From Torpedo marmorata (lineage: Eukaryota), in contig OZ360227.1 of the NCBI GenBank assembly GCA_977017645.1, positions 101,184,001 through 101,248,000 of the forward strand: DNA of 64,000 nt, written 5' to 3'. This document shows, in pieces, positions 15,499 through 46,906 of the stretch. The notes under the pieces are model-generated. The model saw nothing but the letters and a program-made list of their open reading frames with translations, was not told where the DNA came from and made no database searches. The translations under genes and the position numbers were made by a program. Positions within the stretch are counted from its first letter, which is position 1, and the number at the start of each line of letters is the position of its first letter.

Positions 15499-16145
15499 AT
15501 TCAGATTTCAGATTTATTGTTTCAGATTTCAGATGTACATACGACATCACATAAAACCCTGAGATTCTTCTTCCTGCGGATGAGGTATAATTACCACTTA
15601 TTGGCAGTATAAAAAAAACAGACTCAATGTACACATGTAAACAAATAAAGAAATGTAAACAAACTGGCTGTGCAATACAGAGAAAGAAAAAAAAATCAAT
15701 AAAGTGCTAAATTAAGAGTCCTTAAATGATTGAGTTTATTGTTGAGGAGTCTGATGGTGGAGGGGTAGCAGCTTTCCCTGAACCTGATGGTGTGAGTCTT
15801 GTGGCACCTATACCTATTTCCTGATGGTAGCAATGAGAACGGAGCGTGTGCTGGGTGGTGTGGATCCTTGTTCATTGCTGCTCCTCTCCGATGGCAGCGT
15901 TCCCTGTAGATGTTCTCAATGGTGGGGAGGGTTTTGCCTGTGATGTCCTGGGCTGTGTCCACTACCTTTTGCAGGACTTTGCGCTCAGGGGTATTGGTGT
16001 CCCCATACCAGACCATGATGTAGCTGGTAAGCACACTTTCCACCACACATCTGTAGAAATTTTCCAGGGTTACCAATGTCATACCAAACCTCCACAAACT
16101 CCTGAGGAAGCAGAGGCGCTGACGTGCTTTCTTCACGATGCCATT
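15499..16145 (-). mobile_element. Rex1/Babar LINE, 3' part (interrupted by BEL element)
   Basis: IVKKARQRLCFLRSLWRFGM...FYRCVVESVLT; continues at 21624; collinear with the uninterrupted copy near 37750. Confidence 0.9.
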
Positions 16146-16680
16146 TGTAAGAGCCATAGGCTTGGTTACTTACCTTCATCGCGGCGTTCCGATGTATCCA
16201 GCGGGTTTCAGAGGAGTTACGGAGATTAGTAGGCTGTGCTAGGCCTATTGAGTAATCTGCGCATGCGCGGGAGTGCCGACGGGCGCATGCGCAGTAGGGA
16301 AGTGGCTGGAGCATGCGCGGTGGAGTATGCGCGGTGGACCATGCGCGTTAATCAGGGAAGAAGTATATAAGAATATGGCGACTTAGAGGAGGGTGAGTGA
16401 GATCGCCATAGCTTTCATTGACCGTTTAAAGGAAGTTATAAAGAATCGTTTTAAAGGAAGTTTAAAGACGTTTTAAAGAATTGTTATTAAACATCATTAT
16501 CAAGAATTGTTTATATTTCGTTAAAGAAGATATTTAAGTCTTTGAAGATTGCTACAAGTCATCGTGTGTAAATAAAGTTTTTTAACCTATTGGACTTGTT
16601 AGTAAATTAATTGAAACGCGTCATGAACAAGTGTCTCACCTAGCCTCCAAGTGACTATTTGTTGGATTGAAATCACTATA
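16146..16680 (+). repeat. 5' LTR of BEL element
   Basis: TGTAA...CTATA; TATATAA at 16364; AATAAA at 16571; ~18 substitutions versus the 3' LTR counted by eye, many at CpG. Confidence 0.95.
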
Positions 16681-17139
16681 TTTTAGTCAATGAAAGTTTA
16701 TTGTTTGGAACAGAAAATTGAAGGAAAGAAGATAGAATAAGCTCTCTGTGCTTTGGACTGATATTTAAAATAAGATGGTGGCCATTTTGGAAATGCCTCG
16801 AGTTAGGGGCAGTTTGTAATCCACATCCATCTGCCATGAGTATCAGCCAGAGAGGGATATAGAGCTTCAAATCTTATAGTGAAGTGTCCTACAAAAATAC
16901 GCTGGAGAAACCATTTCTCGAAAATCAGCGATATTATTGACGGATGCTGCGGTGGAAACTCGTTTGTGAATAGTAGCACATTACAGTCATCTGAAGTGGT
17001 AGGCATAAGTCTGTGGACTCCTTCTGTGTATCTTTGGCAAGTTTGAACACAGATTGGATTTGCTGCCGCAGTCCATTGGGGACTGTTGATTTGGCTAGTG
17101 TTGTGTATGCTAGAACGACGGTGGAACAAGACAAGTAAA

Positions 17140-17784
17140 ATGGCCGCAGCAGCCACTGATGTTGCTGCTGAGGAACAACGTGTTGAAGACATGAAGGTTG
17201 TGGAGCTCAAAGAAGAATTGAAGCGACTGAAACTAGATACAACTGGAAATAAAAAGGTTCTCATCACAAGACTGAAGCTGGCAAAGGAAGAAGAGGCTGC
17301 TTCGTTTGATGAACATGAAGACAGCAACGTGGAAATGGCGGAAAATGTGTCACCAAATGATGAAGAAAACGAAGAGGATGAAGATGCAAAGGATGTACAA
17401 TTCGAATTGGTGAAGGAGGTAAGTAAGAAGACAACATCTGACCTATAGGATGAAATACAAGCATGTGACAGTGTCTCAAATGTTGAAAGCAGGAGAAGCA
17501 AACTAAGTTCCGGTTCAAGCTCCAGAGTTTATCGTACTTCAAGTTCTGCATCGTCACGTACAAAGGTTGAAGTTGACTTGGCCACTCTTCTTGCGCAACA
17601 AAAAACACTTAAGGATAAACATATTTTAGAACGACAGGAGGAGCAGCTAAGGCAAAAGGAGGAGCAGCTAAAGCAGCAGCTAGAGCAGCAGCTAAGCCAA
17701 GAGAAGGAGCAGCTAAGGCAGAGAAAGGAGCAGCAGGATCTGGAAGCAAACATTACTATTGCCAGGGCAAAAAAAAGGTACTAG
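17140..17784 (+). pseudogene. Gag N-terminus: SAP domain plus BEL gag coiled coil (in-frame stop at 17446)
   Basis: MAAAAT...VEDMKVVELKEELKRLKLDTTGNKKVLITRLKLA, then in the same frame DSVSNVESRRSK...LLAQQKTLKDKHILERQEEQL as in fish BEL gag. Confidence 0.8.
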
Positions 17785-18114
17785 AAGGCTCAATGGTATC
17801 TGTTACTCGGAGTAAATTATCTAAAGTGTGCAATGATAAGAAGTTATATTTTAAAAAAGAGCCACAGGAAAAGAAACCAACCAAAAAGGTAGATATTTTA
17901 GTACCAAGGGTACAAGACTTGCAAATACAAGGACAAATCCTTCAAGATCATGTTGTTATCGAGTCACATGTACCAGTGGTAACATCCGAAGACAAAGCTG
18001 TGGCTTGGGTTCGGTCAAACGATGCAGCTCCCTTGTCATCTGAGTCAAGCATCAGAAATATGGGAGAAACTACACCAGTGAGGTTTCCAGATACATTACC
18101 TGTAACAAGAGGCG

Positions 18115-19110
18115 GTGAACAGAGCAATGTATTGTCATCCAAAGGAAAGAAAAAATGAAATTGCTGCATCATTGATTCAGTTACAGTCTCTCTCTTCTTT
18201 GCTTAAGAAAGAGATTCAAACTTTTGATGGTGATCCACTTCAGTACCAAGCGCTCATGAAATCTTTTAGACGCAATATTGAAAATAAATGTCAAGACCCT
18301 GATGAATGTCTTTATTATTTGGAAATGTTCACAAAGGGACATCCAAGAGAACTTGTAAAGAGTTGTCAACATATGTCCTCAGAAAGAGGATTAGACAGAG
18401 CTAAGTCTTTACTAGAACAACATTTTGGCAACAAGCATCGAATTGCTTTAGCTTATATGGATAAAGCTCTTAAATGGACATCAATAAAACAGAATGATGT
18501 AAAGGCTCTACAAGCATGTACTCTCTTTTTAAGAGGATGTTGTAATGCCATGGAAGATATCGATAATATTCGTGAGCTTGACGTGCCTGGTAATATGCGA
18601 ATCATCTTAGATAAATTACCTTACAAGTTGTGGGATAGATGGAGAAATTTGGCTTGTGATTTACAAGAAAATTACAGTCAAAGAGCTACCTTAAAGGATT
18701 TGGTAAATTTTCTTGAACGACAGGTGTACATTGAAACAGATCCAATATATGGAAATACCAGAGACAATTCAATGGGGAACAAAGATGTAAGGAAGTCAAA
18801 CTCACAGCCTAGTCCAAAATTGAAAATGAGTACTTTTGCTACTAATGTGTCAGTTATAAATAAAGAAAAAGATAAAGTAAATAAGGAAAAGGAAAGTTTG
18901 ACTAATGAGAAGAGTTGTTTGTTCTGTAAAGGTGTACATGCTTTGGAAATGTGTTTACGGTTGGAAAAGAAGGAACATAATGAGAAGATCGCTTTCTTAA
19001 AGGAAAATGGAGTGTAGTTTAGCTGTCTGTGTAAAGGGCACATCAGTAAAAACTGCGAGAAGCGAATTAACTGTAACATATGCAATTTGAAGCATCCTAG
19101 AATGTTGCAT
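18115..19110 (+). pseudogene. BEL/Pao gag core (DUF1759-like) with three Cys/His knuckles
   Basis: EIQTFDGDPLQY...LYYLEMFTKGHPRELVKSC...LLEQHFG; CLFCKGVHALEMC, (stop replaces C)FSCLCKGHISKNC, CNICNLKHPRMLH. Confidence 0.9.
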
Positions 19111-20832
19111 ATCCATCAAAGAAACAAGGAATTGGAAAAGGAGCAAACAGAAACAAAGGAAACATCAGAAAACAATGTTATAGCCTCGGTTCAGACAAGT
19201 GGTCTTACCGGGGCCGGTATGGATAACTGCAAACTTTCAATAGTGCCTGTACAAGTCAAGATTAAGAACGGGGATGCAACAGTACATACGTATGCATTTC
19301 TCGACTCAGGCAGCACTGAATCTTTTTGCACGGTGGGACTAATGCACAAACTTAATATTCAAGGAAGAAGGTCAAGAATTATGTTGAAACCCATGGGACA
19401 AGAAAAGGTTGTTGAAACCAGCATTGTTTCAGGCTTAGAGGTTGCTGGATTGTATGACAAAAAATTTTGTGATCTTCCAAGTTTATATACTCAGAAGATT
19501 ATGCCTGTGCACGAAGGAAACATTCCGCATCAAAATGATTTCCATCATTTGTCTTATCTGTGGAAGGTTTATTTACCTGAAGTTAATTCTGAGATAGAAA
19601 TGCTGATTGGTTCAGATGTACCAAAGGTTCTGGAACCACCAGAAGTAATACAGAGTAGAGAGAATTGTCCTTACGCTGTTAGAACCAAGCTTGGTTGGCC
19701 AATCAATGGACCATTGGAAAGAAATAATGATATTGCACAGGAACAGTTAGTGATAAATGTTAACAGAATTTCGGTTGTGAAATTTGATGAGTTAAGGGAA
19801 GAGCAAAAGACTGTGAATAAGAAAGTCACTTTTGAAGAAAAGAAAACAGATCAATGTGAAAATAAATCAAAGGTATTTAAAACAACATTGAAGGAATTAT
19901 TTTCATCAGAAATGGATGAAAATGAAGTATTAGAAGATGTTGCAAATAATACTAGTGATTATTCATGTGTAATTGAATCAGAGGCAGGAATAAAACAAGT
20001 GACTGAGAACAAATTTGAAAGTAAATTTTGTAGTTCGGAGGTTACAGCAGACAAAGTCAATGAAGAAATGTCGCAATGTGATGTAAAACTGGAGAACACA
20101 GAAAATTGTGCTGATGGAATAAAGAAGAATGTGAATGATAATTTAATGCAATTGAATTCAGAGAACAAAATGTTGAAAGGGGAACTGGAAATATTGGATA
20201 ATCATGAAAACAGTAAACAGAAAGATTTCATTGTAAATAAAATTCGCAAAGTCAGAAAGCGGAAGAAAAGAATAACTGCTGAAGAAATAAATACAGTTAT
20301 TGAAGAAAGAGATTCAACATTATCAAGATGTAAAAGGTTGGAGGAAGAGATTCATTTTTTGAAAGAGATCAAGTTATTGGTTAATAACACAAAACAGCTG
20401 ACTATAGAAAACAATCAAGAATGTAAATTGAAGGTTCAGCTGTTAACAATGCAGAAAGAAAGTGATATTGCATTGCAGCAATGTAACAAGCAAGATGAAG
20501 AAATTCAAATATTTCAAGTTTACCATAGCAGGGTTGACAACAAAAGTATCAATGTATCACATGATATTTTCACTTCAGATCAAGTTATTAATTTCTCAGA
20601 AGGAACTGAGACTGAATTGAAAGTTGCAAAATTGGATTTGGAATTGCAGGAAAAGGCAATAGAAACCAGAGTGGTTAAAGAGACTCGTTTATTAAAATCG
20701 AGAGGATCAGATAAATATTCAAATTCTGGTTATGAAAGTTCAAATTATTCATATGAGAAACGACATGTTGAAGAAGTACCTTGTGTTAAATTCAAAAGGA
20801 AAAACTATCTATTTTGTCTGAGGAAGATTTGA
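19087..20832 (+). pseudogene. BEL aspartic protease fused to a non-pol tail containing a MIPOL1-like coiled coil
   Basis: SIVPVQV..TYAFLDSGSTESFC, MLIGSDVP, AVRTKLGWPINGP; then ITAEEINTVIEERDSTLSRCKRLEEEI where RT should be. Confidence 0.85.
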
Positions 20833-21088
20833 GGTTTACTGGTCGACGTTCTAACTCAAAGATTCTGGAGATAAAATAACTTTGATAAATACAAACTGAC
20901 TTTATTTTGTTATTTTGTATACTACACAGGTTACAGACTTTTACTGATCCAGAGTTATGGTAAACTCTGTTCTTATGAAGAAAGAAGATTTGTATATTGT
21001 TTGAATGTTATATGGTTATTGTTATTTGTAATTGATTGTATAATTATTATTTAAGACATTGCGTCTCGTTATAATAATTAGGGGCCGG

Positions 21089-21623
21089 TGTAAAAGCCAT
21101 AGGCTTGGTTACTTACCTTCATCGTGGCGTTCCGATGTATCCAGCGGGTTTCGGAGGAGTTACGGAGATTAGTGGGCTGTGCTAGGCCTATTGAGTACTC
21201 TACGCATGTGCGGGAGTGCCGACGGGCGCATGCACAGTGGGGAAGTGGCTGGAGCATGCGCGGTGGAGTATGCGCGGTGGAGCATGCGCGTTAATCAGGG
21301 AAGAAGTATATAAGAATATGGCGACTTAGAGGAGGGTGAGTGAGATCGCCATAGCTTTCATTGACCATTTAAAGGAAGTTATAAAGAATCATTTTAAAGG
21401 AAGTTTAAAGACGTTTTAAAGAATCGTTATTAAACATCGTTATCAAGAATTGTTTATATTTCGTTAAAGAAGATATTTAAGTCATTGAAGATTGCTACAA
21501 GTCATCGTGTGTAAATAAAGTTTTTGAACCTATTGGACTTGTTAGTAAATTAATTGAAATGCGTCATGAACAAGTGTCTCACCTAGCCTCCAAGTGACTA
21601 TTTGTTGGATTGAAGTCACTATA
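21089..21623 (+). repeat. 3' LTR of BEL element
   Basis: Direct repeat of 16146-16680, followed immediately by TSD CCATT. Confidence 0.95.
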
Positions 21624-22196
21624 CCATTAGTGTGTTGGGTCCTGGAAAGATCCTCCGAGATAGTGACTCCCAAGAACTTAAATTTGCTCACCTTCTCCAT
21701 CTCTTATCCCCCAATGATCACTGGTTCGTATACCTCTGGTTTTCCCTTCCTGAAATCAATAATCAGCTCCTTGGTTTTGGTGACACTGAGTGCAAGGTTG
21801 TTGTTGGAGCACCATTCAGCCAAGTTTTCAATCTCCCTCCTGTATGCTGACTCATCGTCCCTTATTAAGCAACCCACTACTGTGGTATCGTCAGTGAATT
21901 TGTAGATGGTGTTGTTGTCGTACCAAGCCACACAGTCATAGGTGTAAAGTGAGTAGAGCAGAGGGCTAAGAACTTAGTCCTGTGGTTCTCCGGTACTGAT
22001 GGAGATTGTGGGGGAGATGTAATATCAATCCTCTGATTGTGGTCTGGAGGTGAGGAAATCAAGGATCCAATTACACAGTGGGCTTTTGAGTCCTAGGTCT
22101 TGGAGTTTGCTGATCAATTTTGAGGGGATGATGGTGTTAAATGCTGAACTGTAGTCGATAAAGAGCATCCTGGTGTATGCATCTTTGCTTTCCAGG
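21624..22196 (-). mobile_element. Rex1/Babar LINE, RT part (continuation of 15499-16145)
   Basis: [29 protein letters not shown]...ESAYRREIENLAEWC. Confidence 0.9.
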
Positions 22197-33481: not shown

Positions 33482-36400
33482 TGACTGAACCCTAGAGAAA
33501 AAGATTATTCATTTTATTCTTTTAGACATGATCTAGGATAGATTTATTTTTATTATCATCACAGGTTCAAGATAGAATAACGCAAGCATCCTATAAAGCG
33601 AGAGTAATTTCTGATCATTCACCTTTGTTATTGTCTTGTATAATTCCGGAAAAAGAAAAAACTATATATAATTGGAGATTTGATTCGTCGTTATTAAAAA
33701 GGAAAGATTTTTGTGAATATATAAGAAGAGAAATTCAGGAATTTTTACGAATAAATGTTAATTCTATTAATGATAAATTTATAGTGTGGGAAGCTTTAAA
33801 AGCTTACTTAAGGGGTCTAATAATGTTATTCAGTTAAAATTAAGAAAGATTATCTTAAAGAATCAGAAAATCTGGAGAAGGAAATTGAACTTATGGAGAA
33901 AGACTTACAGAGAAATAGATCAATTCAAAAAAGAAATAGTTTAATAGGGAAGAAATTACATTATAATTTATTACAAACAGAAAGAATGGAAAAATTAATT
34001 GAGAAAACTAAACAAAGATATTATGAATTAGGAGAAAGAGCACATAAGGTTTTGGCATGGCAATTAAAAAAAGAACAAGTTTCTAAAACTATAAATGCTA
34101 TAAGGAAGAAAAATACTGGAGAAATAACTTATAAACCTCAAGAGATAAATGAATCTTTTAAAGATTATTATCAGAATTTATATAAATCGCAGATTGATCA
34201 AGATGATTCTAAAATTAATAGATTCTTATCTAAAATTGTATTACCTAAATTGAATATTCGGAGTAGAGACTCTTTAGATTTGCCTTTCACAATGAGGGAA
34301 GTTAGTGAAGTTTTTTCCTCGTTGAAGAGTGGTAAATCTCCGGGTGATGATGGGTTTTCATCAGAATTTTATAAAGAATTTAAAGATTTATTAATACCTC
34401 CATATATGGAGGTATTAGATCAAATTACTGAAACTCATTCATTACCGAAAACATTTTTAAATGCTATAATTACAGTTATAACAAAGAAGGATAGAGATGT
34501 ATTAAAAACTGAATCGTATAGACCTATTTCATTATTAAATGTAGATTATAAAATAATGGCAAAATTTTTAGCAAATAGAATGGCTAAATATTTGCCAGAT
34601 TTGATACATACAGATCAAGCTGGTTTTATTAAAAATAGATATTCAAAGGATAATATAACTAGATTAATTAGTTTAATTAGTTTACATAAAAAGAAACAAG
34701 ATTTACAATTAGTTGTAACATGAGACGCTGAAAAGGCTATTGATAGATTAGAATGGAATTTTTTATTTAAGGTATTAGAAAAATTTGGTTTTGGAAATAC
34801 ATTTATAAATTGGATTAAAACTATATATAAAGAACCATCAGCTAAAGTAATCACAAATGGACAAATATCGCCAAAATTTTCTTTGACACGTTCTACGAGA
34901 CAGGGATGTCCCCTGTCACCAGCTTTATTTGTTTTGGCGATAGAACCATTGGCTGAATTAGTTAGAAAAGATCCTAAGATAGTGGGTATTAAAGTTGGTA
35001 CGGAAGAACATAAGATTAGTTTGTTTGCAGATGATGTATTGATATATATGACAAAATCTATTATATCACTTCAACAACTATCTATTATATTAAGAGAATA
35101 TGGTGAAATATCTGGATATAAAATTAATTCTGATAAAAGTGAAATAATGGCTTTATCTCAGGGTGATTATACTAGATGTAAAGAAATTACACAATTTAAA
35201 TGGGCTAAAGAAGGAATTAAATATTTGGGGGTCAAGTTTGATACAAAATTGGAAAATTTATATAAATTAAATTATTTACCATTATTTGTGAAAATAAAGA
35301 AAGATTTAGAGAACTGGAAAGATTTACCCATAACTTTAATGGGAAGGGTAAATTGTATTAAAATGAATATTTTTCCAAGAGTGCAGTATCTTTTTCAATC
35401 AATTCCTTAAAAAAATTTTTAAGATTTAAATTTTATCGTTAGGAAATTTTTATAGAAAGGAAAGTTAGCAAGAGTAAGTATGGAAAAGTTAACTGGAATT
35501 ATGAGATGGGTGGATTGTAACTTCCTAATTTTCAAAATTATTATAAAGCAGCTCAACTGAAATTTGTTAATGAATTTTTTGATTTAACTAAATCTTCTGC
35601 TTGGATTAAAATAGAATTAAATAATATAGGAGAAGATCTTAAAGAAGAAATTATTTATAAATGGGATTCTAAATTAATATTATTAAAAAAGAAAAATTCA
35701 CCGATTATTAAACATTTGTTAGAAATATGGGGTAAGACGGATAAAGAGAGAGGTGGAAGAGGATTAATTTCTTCAAATATGCCATTATATCAAAATGGAC
35801 TTATATCATTTACTGTTAATAATCAGTTACTTAAAATTTGGTTTCAAAAAGGTATTAAGAAGATAAATGATTGTTTTGAAGCTGGAAAATTTATTATGTT
35901 TCAAAGAATGAAAGATAAATTTAATATACCAGATAATACATTTTTAGCTTATTATCAAGTTAAAGCTTTTTTGACTGAGAAATTAGGTTATGCTTTGATT
36001 TTACCAAGACAAAATGAATTAGAATTATTAGTTACTAATGGAGATGTTAATAAATTTATTTCTCAAATGTATAAATTGTTTCAGAGGATAATGCCTAAAA
36101 TAGGATTGCATAAATCAAGATTAAAATGGGAATTAGATTTAAATGTAAATATAGATGAAAATCACTGGAAAGATTTATGTAAGTTAAGTATGACGAAGAT
36201 TATTAATGTTAGATATAGACTAGTACAATATAATTTTTTTCATCAATTATATTTAACACCAAAAAAATTAAAGAAATTTAATTCGACATTATCAGGACTA
36301 TGTTTTAGATGCAATAATGAGGAAGGTTCTTTTGTTCATTCTACATGGTTTTGTCCAAAGATTCAAGATTTTTGGTTGAAAGTTAAAAAATTTTTAGATA

Positions 36401-36966
36401 AAGTATTTAATATTGTATTTCCAATGTTATTTTTATTTGGAGATATTAAAAAATTTAGTATTAAAAAGAAATTAAATATGTTTCAAGTAGAATTTTTACG
36501 AATTGCTTTAGCTGTTTCGAAAAAAATGCATTGCTATTACTTGGAAATCTGATTTAGATTTAGGATTAGAAAGATGGCATGCAGAGCTTCGTTCGTGTAT
36601 ACCACTGGAAAAAATTACTTATAATTTACGTAATAAATATCATTTCTTCTTGAAAATTTGGAGCCCATATATGAGAGCTGTGGGTTTAAGGATTTGAAGA
36701 TCTCTGGATATCGGATCTACTGGCACATTTGACCTCTATAATAGAATTAGTTTATAGATGGTATTCCCCTTATTCTATCTTTTTCTTTCTTTTTTTTTTC
36801 TATTTTTACTTTTATTTTAATTTTACTAGTTTAGTGGGGATGGGGGGGTTGGGGAGAGGAGGGAGGGTGGGGGGGTGAAAATGTAACACATGTATTTTGA
36901 TAATTTTATATTTTATTTTATGTATTTTGTGATTTAAAAGTTTAAATAAAATAATAAATTAAAAAA
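33482..36966 (+). mobile_element. 5'-truncated L1-clade LINE, disrupted ORF2
   Basis: Endonuclease end SDHSPL; KSPGDDG; YRPISLLNVDYK; RQGCPLSP; LFADD; CFRC..GSFVHSTWFC; polyA; TSD AAGAGAAGAGCAGT (33468-33481, 36967-36980) at a TTTT/AA site. Confidence 0.95.
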
Positions 36967-44147: not shown

Positions 44148-46906
44148 CTCTGAGACGGAGCGCTCGGTCCTCAGTAGCGGCCTTACCTTCGTCCCCCTCC
44201 GCAAACACCTCAACGAGTTCTGCGCACGCCGCGATGCCGAACTCTTCTTCCGTCGCCTCCACCTCAGGGCTCACTTCCATGACCGTGACTCTCCACCCCC
44301 CCACCCAAGACCCTTTCTCCCGCTTCAAGCCTTCTTCCTCTTCCTGGACACCTCGCCCTGGCCAGCTGCCCGCTCTAGACCTTTTTATTTCCAACTGCCG
44401 CCGAGACATCAACCATCTCAACTTCACCACCCCCATCTGGTATTCCAACCTCACCTCCTCAGAACGCTCTGCCCTCCACTCTCTCCGCAACAATTCCAAC
44501 CTCACCATCAAACCCGCAGACAAGGGCGGTGTGGTTGTGGTCTGGCGCACTGACCTCTACCTTGCCGAGGCCAGTCGACAGCTCTCAGACACCTCCTCCT
44601 ACCGACCCCTCCCACAGGACCCCACCACTGCACATCAAGTCACTGTCTCCAACACCATCTCCGACCTCATCACCTGCGATCACCTCCCCTCCACGGCCAC
44701 CAACCTCATTCTCTCCCACCCCCGCACTGCCCGTTTCTACCTTCTACCCAAGATACACAAACCCAACCATCCGGGCGGACCGTAAAACACAAAAATCTGT
44801 AGACACCATGGTTGAAGTAAAAAACACAAATGCTGGAGAAACTCAGCAGGTCAAACAGTGTATTTTATGTAGCAAAGGTAGAAATACATAACCGACATTT
44901 CGGGCTTGAGCCCTTCATCAAAGTATGAGAAAATGCCGGTAGGCGTCCGAACAAAAGAGTGAGGGGAGGAAGGGGGGGGGGGGTGGCAAAGGCAGGAGAT
45001 GATAGGTGGAGAAAGGAGGGAGGGGACAGCAGCAAAGAGGGGGAGGAGGAATGGCTGGGTGGGTATAAAAAAACAGGAAGGACAGGTGAGGGGGGAGAGA
45101 AAGGAAAAGACAAGCAGGTTTAGTGGAAAGCACAAAAGTCAATGTTAATGCCATCTGGCTGGAGAGTTCCCAGATGGAAAATGAGATGTTGTTCCTCCAA
45201 TTTGCAGGTAGTCTGGGTGGGATAGTACATAAGGCCATGGATAGACATGTGAGTGTGTGAGTGTGACTCGGAATTGAAATGGCTGGCTACTGGGAGGTCG
45301 CTGTTGTTGCGGACGGAGAGGAGGTGCTCAGCAAAGCGATCTCCCAATCTACGACCGGTCTCTCCAATGTAGAGAAAGCCACAAAGGGAGCACTAGATGC
45401 AGTAAATAAGTTCTCTGGATGTACAAGTGAAGTGTAGTTTCACTTGAAAGGCCTGTTTGGGGCCCCGGATCGTGGTGAGGGGGGAGGTGTGGGCGCAGGT
45501 GTTGCATCTCCTGTGGGCACAGGGGAAGGTGCCGGGGGTGCGATGGGTGGGGAGGGATGAGTGCACGAGGGATTCGCGGAGGGAGCGGTCCCTGCGGAAG
45601 GCCGAGAGGGGAGAAGAAGGAAAAATGTGTCTGGAGGTGGGATCCTGTAGTAAGTGCCAGAAATTCCGGCAGATAATGTGTTGGATGCGGAGGCTGGTGG
45701 GTTTATAGGTGAGGATGAGGGGGATTCTACGTTTGTTGCATCTGGGGGCAGAGGGGGCCAGGGCAGATGAGCGGGAAATGGAGGAGATGTGGGTGAGGGC
45801 TGAGTTGATGGTGGTGGAGGGGAAGCCACGTTTGTGGAAGAAGGCAGACATTTCAGAAGATCTGGACTGGAACACCTCATCTTGGGAACAGATGCGGCGG
45901 AGACGGAGAAATTGAGAGAAGGGGATGGAATCCTTGCAGGGGACGGGTGTGAGGAAGTGTAGTCCATATAGTTGTGGGAGTTGGAGGGTTTGTAGTAAAT
46001 GTCGGTGGAAAGCTTGTCTCCTGAGATGGAGACAGAGAGATCCAGGAAGGGGAGAGTGTTATCGGAGATGGACCAGGTGAGTTTGAGATCGTGGTGAAAG
46101 TTGGATGCGAAGTGGATGAAGTTGACCAGCTCATCGCGGGTACATGAGGCAGCCCCGATGTAGCGTCGATATAACGGAGGAAGAGATGAGGGGTCTTGCC
46201 TGTGTAGACTTGCAGCATGGATTGCTCCGCAAAGCCCACAAACAGGCAGGTGTAGCTGGGACCCATGCAGGTACCCATGGCTACTCCTTTGATTTGGAGG
46301 AAGTGGGATGAGTTGAAGGAGAAGTTATTGAGAGTGAGGACAAGTTCTGCCGGGCAGAGGAGGGTGGTGTTAGAGGTTGACTGGTCGGGTCTTTGGTCCA
46401 GGAAGAAGCGAAGTGCTTTCAGACCTTCTGTGTGGGGGATAGAGGTATAAAGGGATTGGACATCCATGGTGAAGATGATGCGGTCCGGTTCAGGGAATCT
46501 GAAGTCAAATTTGAGGAACAACATCTCATTTTACGTCTGGGCACTCTCCAGCCAGATGGCATTAACATTGACTTTTCTGCTTTCCACTAAACCTGCTTGT
46601 CTTTTCCTTCCCCTCCCCCCTCACCTATCCTTCCTGTTTTTTCCCTCCCACCCAGCCATTCCTCCTCCCCCTCTTTGCTGCTGTCCCCTCCCTCCTTTCT
46701 CCACCTATCATCCTGCCTTTGCCACCCCCACCCCCCTCCCCACCTTCCCTCCCTCACTCTTTTTTTCGGACGCCTGCTAGCCTGAAACGTCGGTTATGTA
46801 TTTCTACCTTTGCTGCATAAAAGACACTGTGTGACCTGCTGAGCTTCTCCAGCATTTGTGTTTTTTACTTCAACCACGGTGTCTACAGATTTTTGTGTTT
46901 TACTTT
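44148..46906. mobile_element. Penelope element with internal inversion
   Basis: Plus 44148-44782: ERSVLSSGLTFVP...IKPADKGG...FYLLPKIHK. Minus ~44784-46500: TMDVQSLYTSI, GVAMGTCMGPSY, RYID, GIY-YIG and terminal repeat. Plus ~46503-46906: second 3' end. Confidence 0.9.
44887..44927 (-). ncRNA. Minimal hammerhead-like motif in a Penelope repeat
   Basis: CATACT TTGATGA A GGGC TCAA GCCC GAAA TGTC GGTTATG on the minus strand. Confidence 0.6.

Follow-up and report, generated by a model that had tools for sequence, protein, structure and literature searches.

The stretch of Torpedo marmorata DNA analysed here (assembly GCA_977017645.1, contig OZ360227.1, positions 101,184,001 to 101,248,000; 64,000 nucleotides (nt), hereafter the window) contains a non-autonomous derivative of the BEL/Pao elements (retrotransposons with long terminal repeats, LTRs), in which the pol region has given way to spliced sequence from three genes of the host (BRCA1, MIPOL1, Elongin A). 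We read it as one member of a non-autonomous BEL/Pao family with a three-gene spliced cargo, whose MIPOL1 piece came from what is likely a circular RNA and which was likely moved by a related autonomous family, and we put the probability of this reading at roughly 0.78. The features of the element, with its target-site duplication (TSD), are as follows.

16146-21623 (+): whole BEL/Pao element, 5,478 bp
16141-16145 (+): 5′ TSD CCATT, within a minus-strand long interspersed nuclear element (LINE)
16146-16680 (+): 5′ LTR, 535 nt, TG...TA
16681-16696 (+): conserved stretch TTTAGTCAATGAAAG directly after the 5′ LTR, at the position of a candidate primer-binding site, kept in most copies
17140-17445 (+): N-terminus of Gag, with a SAP domain at 17182-17277 (PF02037, E 5e-11)
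17449-19014 (+): remaining Gag, with a coiled-coil repeat, DUF1759 (18223-18645) and the first zinc knuckle; frame broken in the window copy
19018-19806 (+): zinc knuckles and aspartic protease, FLDSGS motif at 19297
19801-20230 (+): cargo 1, BRCA1 piece of two spliced host exons, joint after 19915, native frame
20223-20528 (+): cargo 2a, MIPOL1 exons F (3′ part), G and H, spliced, residues ~365-469
20528-20529 (+): back-splice joint, exon H donor to exon B acceptor
20529-20673 (+): cargo 2b, MIPOL1 exons B and C, starting at residue 210, with an 81-nt deletion common to the subfamily
20673-20863 (+): cargo 3, Elongin A remnants of two host exons, the last piece out of register in the window copy
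20866-21079 (+): end of the BEL frame and 3′ untranslated region (UTR)
21080-21088 (+): polypurine tract (PPT) AGGGGCCGG, identical in the autonomous family
21089-21623 (+): 3′ LTR, 535 nt
21624-21628 (+): 3′ TSD CCATT

Host-gene cargo of the element

The two LTRs of the window copy are 96.6% identical and end in TG...TA, as against TG...CA in other copies, and the LINE is interrupted exactly at the TSD. A BEL-type Gag (DUF1759, zinc knuckles) is followed by an aspartic protease, and a tblastn search with residues 901-2018 of an autonomous relative, which hold reverse transcriptase (RT), RNase H and integrase, gave no match in the element at E<=1. A preliminary description made from the letters of this DNA had listed the LTRs (at ~97% identity), TSD, PPT, gag and protease, and the absence of an RT, RNase H and integrase core, and all of these stand. 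The two short peptides that it took for integrase traces do not. LVDVLTQRFWR (20838) results from reading an Elongin A exon out of frame: the DNA there matches the host exon at 91%, and its native frame reads SILSEEDLRFTGRR. KLCSYEE (20962), for its part, lies behind a stop codon in a stretch that matches the autonomous 3′ UTR.

About 3.2 kb of RT-RNase H-integrase has been exchanged for about 2.0 kb of spliced host sequence, on the sense strand and with each piece in the protease frame, and the cargo has shrunk through deletions from ~2.0 kb to 1.06 kb. In the window copy, 19780-20829 matches ray MIPOL1 at 55-62% (seven matches), and the BRCA1 piece gives a 52% amino-acid match (E 1e-36). One older copy has a single 594-aa frame spanning three foreign pieces, of which the first is BRCA1 residues 194-384 (66% to a ray protein, E 9e-56) and the last is Elongin A (PF06881, E 7e-16; PDB 8oev, E 6e-40). 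Weak BLAST extensions had carried MIPOL1 to residues 313-359, a stretch that is in fact BRCA1.

The three host genes were located in the genome and compared with ten copies, the window included. Older copies contain up to four exons of BRCA1 and up to five of Elongin A, in spliced form and normal order, with 87-100% identity per exon that drops below 87% only where a match spans a deletion; in the most numerous subfamily the Elongin A piece is mostly lost. The genome also has a second Elongin A-like gene, more distant and intron-containing, at G000:C25:175318134-175337048. The paralogous Elongin A-like locus on C25 was rejected as donor, at 68-77% against 87-98% for the C41 gene in the older copies. 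All three joints between genes, and likewise those to BEL sequence, lie within exons; the BRCA1|MIPOL1 joint shows 2-4 nt of microhomology, the MIPOL1|Elongin A joint has ~19 unassigned nt, and the BEL-side joints lack a close enough donor. It is scarcely credible that the cargo consists of processed pseudogenes made by LINEs and inserted as DNA into an existing element: LINEs are abundant in the window, but 3.2 kb of pol is replaced rather than interrupted, neither a poly(A) tail nor a duplication is visible at the joints, and the cargo pieces are internal ones that keep the frame.

The earlier proposal of a non-autonomous element that captured cellular RNA thus finds support in the spliced host exons and in an autonomous partner family. 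The proposal had counted two host-gene-like segments. The cargo is confirmed and now carries the names of three pol-replacing genes, and the N-terminal segment is a SAP domain that is also part of autonomous Gag. The placing of the segments in the polyprotein frame holds for the three cargos, which lie in the protease frame; the frame of the window copy is itself broken by stops at 17446 and 19015 and by frameshifts near 17775 and 18150. Each of these breaks is present in one to four of 31 window-type copies, the window included, after the exclusion of nine near-identical clustered copies, and the same 31 underlie the counts of changes below.

The SAP segment occurs in 18 of 20 autonomous-type copies examined and in none of the 22 BEL relatives from other species that were scanned (22 of 53 matches). 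Because autonomous copies carry SAP and the scanned relatives of other species do not, SAP is on this comparison a feature of the Gag of this BEL lineage, not of the pol replacement, and it is possibly an older host capture retained by a working element. A homolog search with the window SAP segment found no donor gene among longer proteins; PDB gave only weak SAP matches, and the Atlas only generic SAP clusters under 0.9. Where the autonomous copies (L121-L131, L134-L140) have SAP, relatives from other species have a different N-terminus.

Elsewhere in the window, LINE RT remnants lie at 33824-36552 (+) and 45877-46530 (-), and neither tRNA genes nor strong tandem arrays were found within the 64 kb.

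The MIPOL1 splice joint

The host MIPOL1 exons were mapped over 330 kb and are lettered A-I for the present analysis. Exons B to H have AG and GT ends throughout and total 780 nt. The cargo does not keep their order: it opens with the last 124 nt of F, passes through G and H and goes on with B, with C and with 18 nt from D, and in many copies residues ~340-469 directly precede residues 210-300. The H donor and the B acceptor lie 206 kb apart in the host gene and in the opposite order, with B upstream, and the host GT and AG at these sites were confirmed. All 57 aligned copies (the window, 39 chosen by likeness to it and 17 from a MIPOL1 search) cross the H|B joint without an indel. Genome-wide (6.2 Gb), a 20-nt pattern for the H|B joint has 4,806 exact matches and its reversed control has none; the pattern for the normal H|I joint has no exact match in the genome, and the MIPOL1 C-terminus has a single match, the host gene. 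Older copies contain 587 of the 780 nt of the B-H circle and nothing from beyond it, and neither exon A nor exon I is present in any copy examined.

Because a late-exon donor is joined exactly to an early-exon acceptor without an indel, the MIPOL1 piece likely derives from a host back-spliced circular RNA (circRNA) that would have entered the element by copying and been carried along as the element spread. Among the features by which circRNA-derived pseudogenes are recognized, those seen here are a non-colinear joint between a true donor and a true acceptor, no exons from outside the circle and no visible poly(A) at the cargo joints.

Two other routes to this joint have to be weighed. One retains the capture by a BEL element and derives the joint from a linear RNA with repeated exons, produced by a tandem duplication in the ancestral gene or by trans-splicing. 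Such an RNA would give an identical joint at exact splice sites, other origins of non-colinear joints have been noted by Dong et al. (PMC4897178), and the captured MIPOL1 amounts to less than one full turn (587/780 nt), so rolling-circle copying is not shown. We nevertheless regard this route as unlikely, since each of exons B-H occurs once in the host gene over the 330 kb and the copies examined are free of exons A and I; a mouse circ-Mipol1 is also reported (PMC9888537). The other route is a chance jump of RT on an ordinary linear mRNA by way of a shared AG. In its favour, at least four further jumps are seen in this element and the H|B joint has a 2-nt AG overlap, but both ends sit on splice sites, for which a random jump has a rough chance of 1e-4, and all the other jumps landed within exons. 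We consider a chance jump very improbable.

Three further observations concern the MIPOL1 locus and its copies. Exons B-H of the host gene (G000:C40:64591882-64385713) are free of stops when read round twice, and the predicted circle would therefore have an endless reading frame. Four cargo copies sit within introns of host MIPOL1, and tandem re-duplications of the MIPOL1 cargo, 99.8-100% identical, lie behind copy L090 (L090:7608-8996).

Copy family and autonomous relatives

The family has at least 4,806 copies. In an unselected sample, the first 40 of the 4,806 H|B matches in genome order, BEL protease lies upstream in 38, BRCA1 directly before in 35 and Elongin A after in 38 (in two of them for less than 60 nt), and none of the 40 loci contains 150 nt or more of pol. 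A crude screen of the same sample found LTR pairs in 14 (80-95% alike) and TSDs in three. Shorter pol matches of 75-83 nt occur in 17, and in the six of these that were examined the match is the integrase C-terminus behind the cargo, marking a 3′ crossover that differs from that of the window. An integrase C-terminus piece behind the cargo, from a second 3′ crossover with the autonomous family, is seen in the window-type copies L162, L165, L177, L185, L190 and L195.

Both LTRs are whole in ten of 40 window-type copies, at 93-97% LTR identity, and the TSDs of these ten are all different (eight perfect, two with one mismatch). The original BRCA1|MIPOL1 joint of the older copies has 398 exact matches. 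The chimera is thus shown to have spread in waves to thousands of sites, with TSDs of its own and with a cargo that drifted and shrank. The preliminary description had supposed that the element transposed in chimeric form, and had proposed looking for further copies of the mosaic and for an autonomous partner sharing the LTR. Both exist: the host genes are located, the mosaic recurs with distinct TSDs in thousands of copies and not in this one only, and a BEL family shares the PPT and the LTR start.

All 30 bins of 19500-21050 are covered by contigs of sequencing runs bearing three other organism labels, and 28 by contigs of a run with a fourth label (four of 17 runs were compared). The protease|BRCA1, BRCA1|MIPOL1, H|B and MIPOL1|Elongin A joints are bridged by single contigs of those runs, and no contig spans the whole stretch. 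No run of RNA was listed as holding the sequence, which has no bearing on expression.

Both flanks of L031 (G000:C57:64469095-64476295) match the window insertion at 88-93%, which makes it a segmental duplicate and not an independent jump. Near-identical cargo copies with shared insertions are spread over the short contig C3 of 2.1 Mb (L038, L039, L041, L044-L046, L051, L055 and L060); together with L061 they form a cluster that is likely a duplicated array.

A Pao-peptidase search scored 150 places in the genome, of which 20 were examined, picked for long frames or top scores. In seven of these 20 autonomous-type copies a single frame runs for 2018-2134 aa and the LTRs are 97-100% alike, and Pfam identified SAP, Gag, RT, Pao peptidase and integrase in the two that were submitted to it. 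The closer autonomous relatives match the window at 16146-19806 and 20866-21623, at ~82-89% in the coding part, and have the PPT and the start of the LTR in common with it; in the region of zinc knuckles and protease the amino-acid identity to young autonomous copies is 80-85%. The related autonomous BEL family is likely the helper that would supply RT and integrase in trans.

In a tree of the protease (42 of 77 rows; 17 were dropped as too short and the window-type copies thinned to ten), the window subfamily is nested among autonomous elements, apart from the older cargo copies, and a single protease clade of cargo bearers was rejected by an approximately unbiased (AU) test (p-AU 1.8e-6) done after the tree was seen. 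The MIPOL1 tree (32 rows) is one ladder, from the host through the older copies to the window-type copies. Because the protease tree splits the cargo bearers while the MIPOL1 tree is a single ladder, the two together show one cargo lineage that changed its backbone by recombination, the window subfamily having gained a newer protease from the autonomous family.

Reading frame, proposed origin and wider meaning

The reading frame of the cargo was guarded more closely than its amino acids. The frame is the same across the protease|BRCA1, BRCA1|MIPOL1 and MIPOL1|Elongin A joints in 36/40, 40/40 and 40/40 window-type copies, and in 9/11, 16/17 and 14/14 of the scorable older copies (17 in all). 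Stops account for none of 148 cargo changes shared by the copies and for 27 of 330 private ones (p 5e-5). All ten indel classes of the 5′ frame that are common to at least five copies are multiples of three, as are shared deletions inside the cargo pieces; the exceptions sit at the edges of the alignment and ahead of the final Elongin A piece, which has no fixed frame. All 23 near-complete copies of the 31 have at least four breaks in the 5′ frame. The ratio of non-synonymous to synonymous change (dN/dS) against the host, for changes shared by most window-type copies, is 0.84 for BRCA1, 1.08 for MIPOL1 and 0.49 for Elongin A (not significant), and a second shared set gives 0.77, 1.37 and 0.38. 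Private changes give 1.0-1.25, from which no cargo's shared value differs (Elongin A, p about 0.2). On the stem of the window subfamily, the protease has 11 synonymous and nine non-synonymous changes (p 0.004), indicating purifying selection; for the SAP region purifying selection is not clear. These patterns of substitution show stops and frameshifts purged from a cargo whose amino acids drifted in a neutral manner, and because they were purged despite that drift, the selected trait seems to be the open frame and not a cargo protein.

The alternative is that the cargo proteins work, the protease freeing BRCA1, MIPOL1 or Elongin A pieces that aid the element or affect the host. The three pieces all keep their native frame, with stops purged, older copies keep an Elongin A part that matches PDB 4hfx and 8oev, and Elongin A has the lowest shared dN/dS. 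The shared values for BRCA1 and MIPOL1, however, are no different from private ones and that for Elongin A is not significant, the most numerous subfamily lacks most of the Elongin A piece, and the BRCA1 piece has neither RING nor BRCT. Working cargo proteins are in our view quite improbable, and the earlier suggestion that the protease releases functional cargo domains finds no support in shared dN/dS values of 0.8-1.1 for BRCA1 and MIPOL1 and a cargo cut to 1.06 kb.

Our data are consistent with a model in which a germ-line BEL particle took up host RNAs, and RT would have switched template from the element to Elongin A mRNA, to the circular MIPOL1 RNA, to BRCA1 mRNA and back to the element, in one round or in several. 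Co-packaging and template switching are modelled here on Tan et al. (PMC5131818). The resulting chimera, with pol replaced in the protease frame, then spread in waves to thousands of sites, and later subfamilies recombined with newer autonomous elements, which is shown for the protease and also visible at the 3′ end. Translation as far as the 3′ end may aid the RNA in cis, by escape from nonsense-mediated decay or by packaging through its own Gag fusion, and the cargo itself would then serve as open-frame stuffing.

A number of points weigh against this account. The likely circular origin is read from joints in DNA, and a linear RNA with repeated exons would yield the same joint. Microhomology at the switch points is weak, and most window-type copies have their last Elongin A piece out of register. 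In the older copies, stops make up none of 54 shared and 22 of 441 private changes, which is not significant by itself (p 0.15). The protease signal on the stem may date from before the recombination, and Gag on the same stem, with four synonymous and nine non-synonymous changes, gives no clear purifying signal. The AU test came after the tree. Lastly, no cargo copy was seen with LTR identity above 97%, so the family may no longer be moving.

Beyond this account of the family, we lean, with less assurance, towards a wider proposition: that a host circRNA served as template for the RT of a vertebrate LTR retrotransposon, that its joint was amplified and moved to newer helper backbones, open only because full translation helps, and that the genome would accordingly hold a dated fossil of a germ-line circRNA. 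The top 'retrocopied genes' of cartilaginous fishes would then be transposon passengers and not selected gene copies.

Several known systems resemble the family in part. Like the present element, the TR-GAG elements of plants have LTRs and Gag (and protease) without RT or integrase; they are not known to carry host cargo. Mouse circRFWD2 pseudogenes, with 33 high-confidence copies near which LTRs are enriched, were described by Dong et al. 2016, who called their mechanism mysterious (PMC4897178). They share with the present family a non-colinear joint at the back-splice site, nothing from outside the circle and an association with LTRs (MMERVK10C-int in mouse). In contrast to those 33 copies, there are at least 4,806 here, inside a defined BEL element that has its LTRs, a TSD, a PPT and a helper family, and the back-spliced MIPOL1 is fused in frame to two other host RNAs.

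The LTR-mediated retrocopies of Tan et al. 2016 (PMC5131818) are similar in that host RNA replaces part of the internal frame while both LTRs are kept, several genes may enter one chimera, Pao/BEL elements are included and further rounds of transposition follow. Spliced host RNA replacing part of the internal frame between two LTRs, and further non-autonomous transposition, are found here too. Their cases have one or few insertion sites, and the string 'circ' is absent from the main text, whereas the present family runs to thousands of copies over successive subfamilies, contains a back-spliced piece and has exchanged its backbone with a helper. Maize Bs1 is likewise a single LTR element that transduced three host gene pieces into a hybrid frame; in the parts of the sources available (PMC13317346, PMC5408686) this plant element is described as a new chimeric gene, with no mention of circular RNA, whereas the cargo amino acids of the present family drift neutrally. 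Mouse IAP 1-delta-1, as described in PMC6466679, is a non-autonomous element with an in-frame fusion that acts in cis and out-transposes its helper. It is an internal deletion of a retrovirus-like element without host cargo, and serves as a model for why the cargo frame stays open.

Each ingredient thus has a precedent, in the three-gene transduction of Bs1, the LTR-mediated retrocopies and the mouse circRFWD2 pseudogenes. Our literature searches on MIPOL1 with circRNA or retrotransposon, on captured BRCA1, LTR and elasmobranch, on BEL/Pao capture and on circular-RNA retrocopies, outside whose reach lay subscription papers and preprint supplements, found no description of the present family, nor of any back-spliced cargo that had reached thousands of copies within a defined LTR element.

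A 2026 preprint (bioRxiv 10.64898/2026.06.26.734816) puts MIPOL1 at the head of its list of genes most often retrocopied in cartilaginous fishes, and ties retrocopy numbers to non-LTR elements and selective filtering; BRCA1, ELOA and circular RNA go unmentioned in its main text. The BEL cargo family would likely explain this MIPOL1 count as passengers of one capture. Caution is needed, as retrocopy counts such as that of MIPOL1 in cartilaginous fishes, and tests for an 'intact frame', can mirror a single transposon. Partial copies of BRCA1, MIPOL1 and Elongin A, present in thousands, can also confound mapping and annotation, and would yield small RNAs against the three genes if the element is silenced in that way.

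The route by which circular RNAs return to genomes was left open by the mouse study (PMC4897178). A back-splice joint inside a complete LTR element that has a helper, at more than 100 times the mouse copy number, makes the route of template switching in particles accessible to study by sequence. In this family, moreover, selection for an open frame can be told apart from selection for a protein, which bears on the fusion frames that non-autonomous LTR elements keep.

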